This document shows positions 52,388 to 56,542 of a stretch of 64,000 nt of DNA, one piece after another. Every line of letters starts with the position of its first letter. Positions within the stretch are counted from its first letter, which is position 1. Source of the stretch: a virus. Its lineage: Duplodnaviria > Heunggongvirae > Uroviricota > Caudoviricetes. A model generated the notes under the pieces. That model was not told the DNA's origin, did no database searches, and worked only from the letters and a program-made list of their open reading frames with translations. A program made the position numbers and the translations under genes. Location: IMG/VR virus record IMGVR_UViG_3300018414_000006, positions 1 through 64,000 of that record; one strand, 5' to 3'.

Positions 52388-54373
52388 ATGAACAGTCTAT
52401 ATCTTCCGGAAGCCTGGCGCTCTGCAAAAGCATCTTTCAAAAAGAAAATAATTGCTAAACAGACTCTAGCAGATTCGCTTTCTTCTAATCTAGTCAATAC
52501 TATCAATACGCCGAATGCACCTGCATTTGATGCAGAAAAAGATCAATCAATGCTTCAGGCACTTGATTATCCTACCTGGCTTCCATTTGCAGCGAAAACT
52601 TATCATATCAGTCCACACATTGAAGACTACATCATTATTCCGACTATTGTCTGTCCTTCAGATCTTCCCAATAGAAATGGTATAGGTTTTCCCGCAAAAG
52701 AATTGGCCACTTTTCTTCCGCCCCCTACTAACCGCATGGCGTACAAAGCATGGGCAGGATGTCCTGTTCACTGTTTTACGGGTGATACAAAAATCCGCAC
52801 GTCAAAAGGATTGCGAAATATCAAAAATATTAAAGTTGGGGATAAGGTACTAACACACAAACATAGGTTTAGAAAAGTAACACATGTTTTTGATAACGGA
52901 ATTCAAAAACTTAAAAGGATTAATTGTTACGGAATCACAATGCCTATTCTGGTTACCGACAATCATCCAATGTTTGTTGTGGACCGTCGTCAATTGTTTG
53001 GTTCTTCAAACTTAGGAACTGTTAGCAAGTTTGGAAAAGGGGCAAAAAATGAATATTCTAAAAAAATAAATTCACATTTTCGTCCTGTTTCTGATATTTA
53101 TCCACTTGACTATTTAGTAGTTCCAATTACAGTAGGTGGCAATAAAAAAGTTGACCCCAATTTTGCATTTTTAACAGGATTATATGCTGCTGAAGGAAAT
53201 CTGGAACCTAACAATAAAGCAATTGGAAAATTTACTAGCGCCAATTTTACTTTAGCTTTTTCAGAAAAAGATCTTCTTGATAAAGCAATAAATTGCGCAG
53301 AATCTTTAGGATTACAATACAAAAAATGGTATAACAAAAAGGACAAAACTTCAGGGTTTACTATTTACAACAGAAACTTTGCACATGCAATGTACGATCT
53401 AGTTGGTGCTTATTCACATAAAAAGAAAATGAAGGGTGAACTACGCAAATGGAATAAAGAGGGACTTGCTCACTTTTTAGGTGGCTATATAAGTGTAGGT
53501 GGCCCTGTAAAAGGTAAACATCGATTAAGATGCCGTACTGTATCTGAAGAATTAGCACAAGATATACAAATGACTTTTGGTCGTCTGGGTATTCCTGCCA
53601 GTGCCAACAATGATGGCGGCTGGACTTCCACGTTTACATCAAAATACCATACACGAAAAGGAATGCGTAAAAATCTTGAAGGAAAACCATTCAGGTCAAA
53701 TGGTACTTCATTTTGTATTAGCGCATCTTTGCATGAAATAGATTTGTTGGTTCCATACGTGGTTGGTCGTAAATTTAAACAATTAAAACAGAAAGTTAAA
53801 GATACAAGCCCCAAAATATTGGTATATAAAAATCATATACTTCTTCCTATATCTTCAATTGAAGATGCTGGAAAAGAACCAGTTTTTAATATTGAAGTTG
53901 AAGAAGATCATACTTATGTTGCAGGGGGTGTCATAGTTCATAATTGCGAACATGATAATGAAATACATGAAAAAGCTTATGGGGTAGTGCTCGATTCAAG
54001 TCTTCACAAAGTTACAGGATATGGTGGTGGAAAACTATGGAAAGTCATGGGGCTGCTTGCAGTAGATAAAAACAAATATCCTGATATTGCACAACAGGTA
54101 CTGACAGGTGAAATCAATACTTATTCTATGGGCGCACTTGTTGATTATTTTACCTGTAGTTATTGTGGGCAGGAATGTTCTTCAAAATACATGTGCCAAC
54201 ATGTTTCTTCTCCAGAAACTATTAATTGGAAATCTGTTAAAGATTTTGATGGTTCGGAACACATAGCATTTCTTAATGCTCACAATATACAGCCGATAGA
54301 AGTGAGCATTGTGAAAGATCCTGCGTGGGCACCTGCTTTATCGGACACACGTTTATCTCTAAAGGAAATTTAA
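52388..54373 (+). CDS. Intein-containing protein; the extein resembles the T4 gp21-type prohead core protease
   Basis: Intein boundaries are PVH|CFTGDTKIRT and GGVIVHN|CEHD. N-extein NGIGFPAKELATF...MAYKAWAGCPVH parallels T4 gp21 KRLYPKRILEKAV...KQALGELNHP. C-extein PDIAQQVLTGEINTYSMGALVD parallels GDKLAANIRAGWIPGVSSRGLGS (the Ser nucleophile region). The gene lies immediately upstream of the scaffold and capsid genes. Confidence 0.45.
   Translation: MNSLYLPEAWRSAKASFKKKIIAKQTLADSLSSNLVNTINTPNAPAFDAEKDQSMLQALDYPTWLPFAAKTYHISPHIEDYIIIPTIVCPSDLPNRNGIGFPAKELATFLPPPTNRMAYKAWAGCPVHCFTGDTKIRTSKGLRNIKNIKVGDKVLTHKHRFRKVTHVFDNGIQKLKRINCYGITMPILVTDNHPMFVVDRRQLFGSSNLGTVSKFGKGAKNEYSKKINSHFRPVSDIYPLDYLVVPITVGGNKKVDPNFAFLTGLYAAEGNLEPNNKAIGKFTSANFTLAFSEKDLLDKAINCAESLGLQYKKWYNKKDKTSGFTIYNRNFAHAMYDLVGAYSHKKKMKGELRKWNKEGLAHFLGGYISVGGPVKGKHRLRCRTVSEELAQDIQMTFGRLGIPASANNDGGWTSTFTSKYHTRKGMRKNLEGKPFRSNGTSFCISASLHEIDLLVPYVVGRKFKQLKQKVKDTSPKILVYKNHILLPISSIEDAGKEPVFNIEVEEDHTYVAGGVIVHNCEHDNEIHEKAYGVVLDSSLHKVTGYGGGKLWKVMGLLAVDKNKYPDIAQQVLTGEINTYSMGALVDYFTCSYCGQECSSKYMCQHVSSPETINWKSVKDFDGSEHIAFLNAHNIQPIEVSIVKDPAWAPALSDTRLSLKEI
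52772..53944 (+). other. Intein (391 aa) with a LAGLIDADG homing-endonuclease domain
   Basis: Block A CFTGDTKIRTSKG; LAGLIDADG-like FLTGLYAAEGN and AHFLGGYISVGG; block G VAGGVIVHN followed by +1 Cys. Confidence 0.75.
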
Positions 54374-54375
54374 TC

Positions 54376-54747
54376 ATGAAAATTCAAGCACTCGCACGTT
54401 TACAATCTACTCAAAATGTTTTAGCAACTGATTCGACTGAATTAACTGAAGCTTTTGAAGAGCTTCAGAAAATATTTGGCAACCGATATACACCAGACAA
54501 TGATAGAGGATACCAAGGATTTTCGTGGGAAACCTCATCGTATACAGCTGCTCTGTATTTATATTCTTCTGAACTTGGTTTTGATTTTTCTGGCGGAAAT
54601 CTGGAAATACAGGTAAATGGAAAAACAAAAGATGCTTTATTTAAAGCATTAAGAAAAGAAGTACAAAATGCACTACAACGAAAATTAGTAATTGAAGATG
54701 TGCCCAGTACTTTACAGAAAATAAAAAAATTATCAAATATTCATTAA
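54376..54747 (+). CDS. Small paralog family protein 3 (MKIQALARLQSTQNVLATDS...)
   Basis: The 5' 51 nt are identical to 45306..45356. The leader is AAAGGAAATTTAATCATG. Confidence 0.5.
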   Translation: MKIQALARLQSTQNVLATDSTELTEAFEELQKIFGNRYTPDNDRGYQGFSWETSSYTAALYLYSSELGFDFSGGNLEIQVNGKTKDALFKALRKEVQNALQRKLVIEDVPSTLQKIKKLSNIH

Positions 54748-54800: not shown

Positions 54801-54916
54801 CGCAATGTATCAGCAATATTCGGCTAGTCAGTATTTCCACAGTGTGTAATTTTATTTTGTACAGAAATTAATATCCCGTGTGGGAGTATCTGTTCTTAAC
54901 TTATTCGAGGAATACG

Positions 54917-56542
54917 ATGGCAATTATTCACAAAAAGAAAGTAACGGCTGCTCCTGCGCCGGAAAGCACAAGTACCCATTTTTCTAATGGTACAACTTCT
55001 CCTGCTGTTGAAGATGGTGCTGCTGCAATTAATCATCAAACTCTGAATGATCTTCTGGTAGATCCAGATGATACAAGTGGATCAACTCATTTCAGTAACA
55101 ATACTACTTTCAGCGAAAAAACAAATCGTAATAATGGTAGTGGTAGTGTTAAAGCATCAAGAAAAAAATCAGCTTCAATACTTGCAGATTTCATGGAAGA
55201 CTCTTTGAGTGGTGAAGACGAATTTGATAGTGATGATACTTTGACAGACGTTAATGCAGACTCTGGCATTTCAAGACCAGATAATGTAACTCCTCCAGGA
55301 AGTACTCAAACTATTCAAAATGGCAAAGGCGATCCTGCTGATGGTTATCTGACTATTGCTGATAGCGATTTTGACGATGACGACAACTATGACAATGAAT
55401 TTGAAGGTGAAACTGACGAAGTTGACGCTTCTGAACTTGAAGAAGATGAAACTGACGAAGTTGACGCTTCTGAAATTGACCCTGCCGCTATTGATAACGG
55501 TGGTGCTAATCAGCAACACTTAATGGTTGAATCTGATGCAGACTGGGATGATACCGACTCAGTGGAAGATATTGATTCAGATGTGGACGATTCTGATGTA
55601 ACTCCTCAGTCTATAGAAGATGGTTCTTTTGAAGACGAAGAAGAACCCGATGAAGTAGTTTCGTCGCCAGATGAGCAAATGAGCCTTCTGGATATTGATG
55701 AAACTGACGACACTGGTGATGATGTTGTTTTCGCCAGCATTGGCACACGTCTTCATGTTATCAAAGCTAATCGCATCATTGCCTCGTTGGGCAAAAAATA
55801 TGCGATTCAAGCCGGGCATGAAGATGTTTATCTAGGTGATGAGTTCCAGGATGTAGTGGGAATTGAAATGGCCAAACATGGCCTTCGTGCGGGTTTGCAA
55901 AAAATGGGATTTCAACTTGCTACTGTTAACATTTCAAAAAATGAAGTGATTAACAAACGTGTAGAAGCGAAGTCCAAAGTCGTAACGGCGGCACTTAGAA
56001 GAACTACAGATACAAAACACAAAGCAATGTCGCAATGTCTGGCTATTGCTGCGGTTGGTATTAATCGTGCTTATTTTAAAGACACACGTAACGAGCTTCG
56101 TGCAGCACTACAAGAAGAACTAGAATCTGCTGGTATGAGAAATGCGAGCGCAATGCTTAAACGAATATTTGCATCTCATGGAGTTTCTTACGCCAAGTCT
56201 ATTTTGACATTGGCTTCAAAACTATCTGATCTGCCAGAAAATGCACGTAATCAGTTTGTTGCTGCGCTTGATATGACTTCTGATGGTTCAGAAGATTCTG
56301 ACTTTTATGGAGAAGAAACAAGCCCGGATTTTCAAACAGAATATGCAAATGTTGAAGACGAAAGTGCAGATGAGGAGTTCGATGATGCATTTGAAGATGA
56401 ACTTGGAGAACCCACTAGTATTATGTCTTCTTTGTCACAGCCGGCAAGACGAAGAAAAGAAATAAGCGCCAAGTCTACTGGATATTCAGTAAGTGCTTCT
56501 GCCGTATTATCAGGTGATGCTCCTTTCCCTGTTTGTTATTAA
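54917..56542 (+). CDS. Highly acidic protein with Asp/Glu-rich tandem motifs; candidate prohead scaffold/core protein
   Basis: ETDEVDASELEEDETDEVDASEID is duplicated, with a 27-nt repeat at about 55411-55470. The protein is about 30% Asp+Glu. It sits between the protease and the capsid gene. Ribosome-binding site GAGGAATACGATG. Confidence 0.4.
   Translation: MAIIHKKKVTAAPAPESTSTHFSNGTTSPAVEDGAAAINHQTLNDLLVDPDDTSGSTHFSNNTTFSEKTNRNNGSGSVKASRKKSASILADFMEDSLSGEDEFDSDDTLTDVNADSGISRPDNVTPPGSTQTIQNGKGDPADGYLTIADSDFDDDDNYDNEFEGETDEVDASELEEDETDEVDASEIDPAAIDNGGANQQHLMVESDADWDDTDSVEDIDSDVDDSDVTPQSIEDGSFEDEEEPDEVVSSPDEQMSLLDIDETDDTGDDVVFASIGTRLHVIKANRIIASLGKKYAIQAGHEDVYLGDEFQDVVGIEMAKHGLRAGLQKMGFQLATVNISKNEVINKRVEAKSKVVTAALRRTTDTKHKAMSQCLAIAAVGINRAYFKDTRNELRAALQEELESAGMRNASAMLKRIFASHGVSYAKSILTLASKLSDLPENARNQFVAALDMTSDGSEDSDFYGEETSPDFQTEYANVEDESADEEFDDAFEDELGEPTSIMSSLSQPARRRKEISAKSTGYSVSASAVLSGDAPFPVCY

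Follow-up and report, generated by a model that had tools for sequence, protein, structure and literature searches.

An intein in the predicted active-site loop of a probable head-maturation protease from a jumbo-phage-like genome

We analyzed a stretch of 64,000 nucleotides (hereafter the window), i.e. positions 1 to 64,000 of the IMG/VR virus record IMGVR_UViG_3300018414_000006, for one of its open reading frames (ORF), 52388..54373 on the + strand, which encodes a precursor composed of an N-extein, an intein and a C-extein. Very probably this gene specifies the prohead serine protease of a jumbo myovirus resembling phiRSL1 and BcepSauron, interrupted by a selfish class-1 intein. The element is of a known kind, its host, the head protease, being new, and the arrangement is common in uncultured relatives. 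The main value of the observation lies in this family-wide pattern.

The precursor and its intein

The precursor is 661 aa long and its frame is open throughout the 1,986 nt of the ORF, stop codon included; an identical protein, P0121, is present in the protein collection. The N-extein (aa 1-128; 52388..52771, +) includes N-R-N, an invariant motif (nt 52670-52678), and terminates in G-C-P-V-H128, while its residues 1-47 are poorly conserved and modeled with low confidence. The intein covers 391 aa (precursor aa 129-519; 52772..53944, +) and consists of the two halves of a HINT splicing domain with a LAGLIDADG endonuclease domain inserted between them. The C-extein (142 aa; 53945..54373, +) begins with the +1 Cys (TGC, 53945-53947). 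The junctions thus read ...AWAGCPVH / CFTGDTKIRT ... YVAGGVIVHN / CEHDNEIHEK, and the spliced product would count 270 aa (128 + 142).

Homologues without an intein give the uninterrupted form of the site. They read G-C-P-V-H-[L/Y/V/I]-E-H-[D/K/A/Q]-N-E, with L, Y, V or I where the C-extein has its +1 Cys, and in the alignments the distance from G124 to A139 is the same in the precursor exteins and in these homologues. When the spliced extein is compared by tblastn with the intein-less proteins of BcepSauron/BcepSaruman, phiRSL1, BCSR5 and Motura, the match runs across the junction in one unbroken piece. The boundaries proposed in the initial annotation (a 391-aa intein, exteins of residues 1-128 plus 520-661, about 270 aa in all) are exact, as both the motifs and the intein-less homologues confirm.

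That the insert is a LAGLIDADG intein, as had been proposed, is confirmed, and it is a canonical one of class 1. Assayed alone against Pfam, it matches LAGLIDADG_3 in two stretches (1.9e-10, over the curated cut-off) and Hint_2 (2.8e-8; 34.7 bits, exceeding the 28.4-bit cut-off), and also Intein_splicing at a score under the cut-off of that family (4.2e-7; 30.3 against 35.8 bits). Its blocks A and F/G match mini-inteins in the PDB. The residues expected of a class-1 intein are all present in an in-frame insertion: Cys1 in block A, the T-x-x-H of block B, and a C-terminal His-Asn followed by the +1 Cys. Cys1 (Cys129, codon TGT; 52772..52774, +), the nucleophile of the first splicing step, is a Cys in 40/40 relatives. 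Block B reads T-D-N-H (precursor aa 190-193; 52955..52966, +), its T and its H being each found in all 40. Blocks F/G (EVEEDHTYVAGGVIVHN; 53894..53944, +) end with His518-Asn519, again both present in 40/40, and align to the Spl DnaX mini-intein (7cfv). Every junction read among the homologous inteins is HN/C, i.e. carries a +1 Cys.

The AlphaFold model of the precursor agrees with this anatomy. Residues 129-519 are modeled with confidence (predicted local distance difference test, pLDDT, mostly 85-97), with beta-rich HINT ends and, at the centre, two alpha-beta-beta-alpha-beta-beta-alpha halves whose first helices are the LAGLIDADG motifs. The junction loops 111-126 and 522-525 have a pLDDT below 50. 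The G+C content of the intein is 0.340 relative to a window mean of 0.383 +/- 0.022, which places it in the lowest 1.3% of windows of equal size.

The endonuclease of the window copy appears damaged. The initial annotation had recognized two LAGLIDADG-like motifs; the first holds in full, while the second has the form of the motif but not its catalytic residue. Motif 1, FLTGLYAAEGN (53168..53200, +; model helix 257-269), keeps the catalytic Glu (Glu269), a position occupied by E in 37/40 and by D in 3/40 relatives. Motif 2, FLGGYISVGGP (53474..53506, +; model helix 357-370), is degenerate: the catalytic Asp is replaced by Gly. In 39/40 relatives this motif reads GDG, and VGG (DNA GTA GGT GGC) occurs in the window copy alone. 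A compensated frameshift as the origin of VGG was ruled out, the DNA differing by plain substitutions and one additional codon downstream. The two helices of a LAGLIDADG pseudo-dimer are thus present, and an acidic residue is found in motif 1 only. LAGLIDADG enzymes draw one catalytic carboxylate from each motif. Double-strand cleavage, and homing with it, have therefore probably been lost from the window copy, to judge from its motifs; since the second catalytic Asp is gone, this copy is likely immobile and late in the homing cycle.

The host protein and its active site

The spliced extein matches PHROG 18299 (head maturation protease) with an E-value of 2.1e-82, extein residues 48-263 aligning to positions 40-250 of the 257 of the profile. 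Among 50,697 GenBank phage records the closest tblastn homologues are those of BcepSauron and BcepSaruman (71% identity), phiRSL1 and BCSR5 (64%) and Motura (54%), whereas PaBG and phages of Dickeya, Erwinia, Rhizobium, Vibrio, Pseudomonas putida and Mycobacterium have more distant homologues. RefSeq names the orthologues of phiRSL1, BcepSauron, Motura and PaBG head maturation protease. Foldseek found 97 matches among viral models (E <= 1e-3), many bearing the annotation prohead serine protease, and no match when the extein was searched against the PDB. As modeled, the extein has the fold common to gp21 and the herpesvirus assemblins, i.e. that of clan SH. The extein also matches PHROG 2774, a profile of length 1,263 and of function unknown.

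At the level of sequence the connection with T4 gp21 is far weaker. The spliced extein and the family alignments gave no protease match in Pfam, NCBIfam or the PDB sequences, and PF03420 was absent from the Pfam results both for the spliced extein (E <= 1) and for 47 diverse relatives (E <= 10). With hhalign, gp21 by itself and gp21 profiles enlarged by 121 close or by 32 diverse relatives from IMG/VR gave E-values of 0.93, 0.38, 0.041 and 0.0049 at a probability of at most 7%, and no sequence relationship appeared with the assemblin of human cytomegalovirus (HCMV). The protein is thus not assignable to Pfam S77 by sequence: the profile comparison of the concatenated exteins proposed at the outset gives no significant match to S77. 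The link to gp21 has the predicted fold, not the sequence, as its basis. The description of the host as a T4 gp21-like protease therefore stands in that it is a prohead protease of the gp21/assemblin fold, as the PHROG match, the fold matches and the gene context together indicate, and does not stand as sequence-level membership of S77.

We considered whether the extein could instead be a lysis enzyme, since its homologues in Burkholderia phage BCSR5 and phage NCTB are annotated “endolysin”. This is extremely unlikely because the Pfam search of the extein gave no lysozyme, amidase or peptidase-M match, and because the gp21/assemblin fold, the RefSeq names and the location in the head module all point to the protease. 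The “endolysin” label of these homologues (GenBank MW460245 for BCSR5, LT598654 for NCTB) is probably an annotation error.

To locate the active site relative to the intein, conservation was counted over 188 members of the protease family, using the extein numbering of the spliced product. Position 131 is a His in 188/188, the only His invariant across the whole family. It lies two residues after the +1 Cys (precursor aa 522; 53951..53953, +) and is the probable catalytic His. Ser189, in T-Y-S-M-G (precursor aa 580; 54125..54127, +), is the probable nucleophile: this Ser and the Gly at 191 are both found in 188/188, and Ser189 pairs with T4 Ser140 in every hhalign path. Glu247, in P-I-E-V-S (precursor aa 638; 54299..54301, +), is a candidate for the third member of the triad (186 of the 188 members have E and one has D); its resemblance in motif to gp21 suggests that it may correspond to the Asp of T4 “GVDAV”. 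An invariant His, then an invariant Ser, plus a third residue (H131, S189, E247) agree with the pattern of clan SH. Between the last two, a C-x2-C-x9-C-x-H cluster (extein 199-214; 54155..54202, +) is a putative structural zinc site, inserted in the protease fold, with a weak zinc-finger Pfam match; its residues are highly conserved (C199 in 185, C202 in 184, C212 in 184 and H214 in 186 of 188).

The initial annotation had placed the intein at the putative catalytic His itself. The His at the junction, H128 (the -1 residue), is nevertheless not conserved: of the 188 members, 151 have H at position 128, 15 have F, 10 have Y, 8 have C, and R and Q are found in two each. Four phages in culture, Vibrio GR11A, Rhizobium RHph_I42, Dickeya JA29 and Pseudomonas Peetri, combine Y or F at 128 with His at 131. 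Moreover, P-V-x-L-E-H131-D-N parallels both P-L-N-I-N-H63-D-D of HCMV assemblin (1CMV sequence), where His63 is catalytic, and L-N-H85 of T4. The family-wide invariance, the Y or F at 128 in cultured phages and the motif parallels lead us to propose that H131 is probably the catalytic His, the intein being inserted three residues upstream of it.

If H128 (CPVH/C) were instead the equivalent of T4 gp21 His85, the intein would split the protease exactly at its general base. This assignment has in its favor the His present at 128 in 151/188 and a gap-free pairing, common to every hhalign path against gp21 profiles (best E 0.0049), of G124-x-x-x-H128 with G81-E-L-N-H85, of N133 with N90 and of S189 with S140. 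But the probability of these alignments does not exceed 7%, a register shift of three residues is possible, and I-N-H63-D-D of HCMV and L-N-H85 of T4 fit L-E-H131-D-N. In addition, 37/188 members have F, Y, Q, R or C at position 128, including the four cultured phages, which are viable with Y or F there while keeping H131, S189 and E247. We thus regard H128 as an unlikely general base and retain H131. Whichever His is chosen, the insert splits the active-site loop, with N-R-N and the preceding strands on one side and His131, Ser189 and Glu247 on the other.

Inteins elsewhere in the protease family

Homologous inteins occur in about 40 protease sequences from metagenomes. With the intein as query we recovered P0121 and 25 further proteases of 606-677 aa whose homologous inteins are 35-60% identical. 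In a HMMER scan of the whole precursor against 1.84 billion cluster representatives, a ranking that favors intein carriers, an insertion longer than 100 aa is present in 32 protease representatives of the best 150 and absent from 48. The protein search made with the extein only listed just proteins of 211-330 aa; as even the identical precursor P0121 is missing from it, the restriction to short proteins is a property of that search.

The situation differs in cultured phages. This intein was found in none of the 50,697 GenBank phage records, the best tblastn match being 25% identical and lying in other genes, and all 316 tblastn matches of the extein in these records are single pieces. In the literature that we searched on prohead and maturation proteases and on jumbo phages, the inteins described all lay in other genes. 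The suggestion that a prohead protease is an unusual host for an intein therefore holds for published work and for phages in culture, whereas in metagenomes such carriers are numerous among the relatives.

Several insertion sites are used; the homologous inteins of P0122-P0146 and P0176-P0190 are found at two of them, A and B. Site A (x128 / C-E-H) is that of the window and of seven others; its junction recurs in long relatives (860-1,800 aa) reading GGHNF / ... / CEHVQ. Site B (E-H131 / C-N-[E/K]), three codons downstream, is that of the majority of carriers. Site C (P126 / C-x-x-E-H), two codons upstream of site A, harbors an unrelated intein of 475-482 aa. Sites A and B both lie in the loop of the probable catalytic His, which also hosts this unrelated site-C intein. 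More sites occur near D169, before Cys212 of the Cys3His cluster and, in long multi-intein proteins, apparently after the S-M-G nucleophile motif; relatives with these sites or with site C are P0197, P0221, P0226, P0263, P0292, P0312 and P0193. Nine proteins of 860-1,600 aa (P0247, P0256, P0259, P0265, P0272, P0291, P0295, P0303 and P0317) have an N-terminal protease-like domain and between one and three inteins each, several of these at the C-E-H junction. In P0192, P0195, P0201, P0222 and P0232, site B is occupied by a mini-intein, of 133-171 aa except in P0232, where it has 274 aa. The whole homing cycle is thus represented in the family, by empty alleles, full-length inteins and mini-inteins.

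The relationship between sites A and B was analyzed with neighbour-joining trees of the 40 inteins and of their exteins (200 bootstrap replicates; distance trees only). Site-A inteins are monophyletic in 0% of the replicates. A site-A clade (P0135/138/139/140) joins P0137, which uses site B, with a support of 100% for the inteins and 82% for the exteins. The window intein joins the site-B inteins P0122 and P0123 at 98%, whereas the window extein joins the site-A carriers P0124/125/127 at 96%. The region of sites A and B in the window spans 52769-53953, and the nearest relatives of intein and extein differ there; the window intein may have been acquired horizontally. From the non-monophyly of site A and the mixed A/B groupings we provisionally favor, without great confidence, a single intein lineage that switched at least twice between these two sites, three codons apart. 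In ordinary homing an intein is copied into the same site. If the switch is real, the intein would have moved over a short range (“intein sliding”), or homed ectopically more than once inside one motif. No simple recombination path behind the three-codon change could be derived from the junction DNA that was examined.

Splicing, genomic setting and related systems

By the standard class-1 mechanism, the 74-kDa precursor would have to splice itself. Cys129 (Cys1) would attack the His128-Cys129 peptide bond, the N-extein would pass to Cys520 (the +1 Cys), and cyclisation of Asn519 would free the 44-kDa intein. An S-to-N shift would then give a 30-kDa protease, ...GCPVH-C-EHDNE..., which presumably acts as T4 gp21 does, being packaged in the prohead where it cleaves the scaffold and capsid proteins. 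Since the 391-residue insert splits the strand and loop of His131, the active site should form only after splicing, and the precursor would be inactive. The intein would persist because the protease is essential and works only if the intein is spliced out precisely.

Some points weigh against this interpretation. We infer, rather than observe, splicing and protease activity; the weak hhalign paths put T4 His85 on H128 and not on H131; and a LAGLIDADG enzyme with one dead active site might still nick DNA.

The intein could also serve the phage as a safety catch. Conditional splicing would delay a dangerous protease, as the N-terminal propeptide of gp21 does, with redox (via Cys125/Cys129/Cys520) or prohead assembly as possible triggers. 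An insertion in the active-site loop should indeed leave the precursor inactive, and gp21 is known to require activation (PMC9958956). The broadly congruent trees of inteins and exteins suggest a long co-residence, and in the window copy the endonuclease has decayed while the splicing residues are all intact. This role nevertheless seems improbable: most relatives, including the closest (P0001, BcepSauron, phiRSL1), do without the intein, which is thus dispensable; 39/40 copies have an intact endonuclease motif, as expected of a mobile parasite; and insertion in active sites is the general rule for selfish inteins.

Conversely, the window copy might be decaying and non-functional, the insert no longer splicing and the protease function having disappeared or passed to another gene. 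The endonuclease does have one active-site residue mutated already. But the 1,986-nt frame is open, all splicing residues and all family-invariant extein residues are present, the gene stands at its usual place among the head genes, and neither another protease homologue nor another intein was found among the window ORFs. For the intein, the window ORFs of at least 120 aa were scanned with a profile of this intein family. A dead copy is thus very unlikely, and we retain a selfish intein that probably still splices from a working protease.

The genes around the protease follow the order of ORF129-140 of phiRSL1. Before the protease come a 1,541-aa helicase and one or two small ORFs; after it come a small ORF, an acidic protein of 554 aa, a virion protein and the major capsid protein, and then, beyond further ORFs, the tail sheath. 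The acidic protein (ORF 54878-56542; 554 aa, pI 4.15, 21% Asp+Glu) is scaffold-like. The protease gene had been described as directly upstream of this scaffold candidate and of the capsid gene; it is upstream of both, but not directly, because the small ORF 54376-54747 intervenes between the protease and the scaffold candidate. The PHROG matched by ORF 54878-56542 is labelled “ATPase”, as is the phiRSL1 counterpart of this ORF, ORF134; the label seems wrong for what looks like a scaffold or internal head protein. The G+C content of the window is 38%, far below that of Burkholderia and Ralstonia, which the closest cultured relatives infect, and megablast of the protease gene against GenBank phages gave no match. 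From this low G+C and the lack of a nucleotide match, the window appears to derive from an uncultured, low-G+C jumbo phage of the phiRSL1/BcepSauron kind.

Intein hosts known so far are mostly enzymes of replication, nucleotide metabolism and packaging; a virion-maturation protease would join this short list of protein classes, and head maturation in these phages would depend on protein splicing. With its empty alleles, intact or decayed endonucleases and mini-inteins, and with inteins of two unrelated lineages that use five or more insertion points, the family is a natural series on how inteins choose and change sites, and it permits testing whether splicing gates a protease. For annotation, protease genes split by an intein are easily missed or misnamed, their homologues being labelled “hypothetical” or “endolysin”.

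The nearest cultured counterparts are the orthologues of phiRSL1 (ORF132), BcepSauron (gp085), BcepSaruman, BCSR5 and Motura, with 54-71% identity to the spliced extein in alignments that cover about 83-88% of it. They occupy the matching place in the head module and share the N-R-N, E-H, T-Y-S-M-G, CxxC..CxH and I-E-x-S motifs, but they lack the intein and have L or Y at the position of the window's +1 Cys. T4 gp21 (MEROPS S77, PF03420, 5JBL) has no significant profile match to the window protein, which differs from it by an unconserved N-terminus of about 50 residues, by the Cys3His cluster, absent from gp21, and by a Glu in place of the Asp. The 120 gp21 homologues listed all have PF03420 and 162-235 aa, and none has an intein. 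The herpesvirus assemblins (S21; HCMV, Kaposi's sarcoma-associated herpesvirus, varicella-zoster virus) belong to eukaryotic viruses, use a Ser-His-His triad and are unrelated in sequence by hhalign.

As for the element, inteins of the PI-SceI type have a two-motif, single-chain LAGLIDADG domain between the HINT halves, with one acidic residue per motif and two active sites; in the window copy a Gly replaces the second acidic residue. By sequence, its nearest solved relatives in the PDB are mini-inteins only, Spl DnaX and gp41-1. The head proteases of other jumbo phages, phiKZ gp175 and SPN3US gp245 (S80), are distant relatives of gp21 with a His-Ser-Asp triad (PMC5694885). They belong to a PHROG family different from that of the window protease and surfaced in none of these searches, and we found no report of an intein for either.

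A further parallel is given by the inteins of mycobacteriophages, for which the survey of Kelley et al. 2016 (PMC5050341) names TerL, portal, helicase, primase and ThyX as hosts; a head protease is not among the host-protein abbreviations in the figure legend of that survey. As described there, these inteins resemble that of the window in their class-1 chemistry, in their LAGLIDADG-type endonucleases and in their insertion at active-site motifs of essential, conserved proteins. They also share with the inteins of the protease family a sporadic distribution, in which carriers have intein-less partners.

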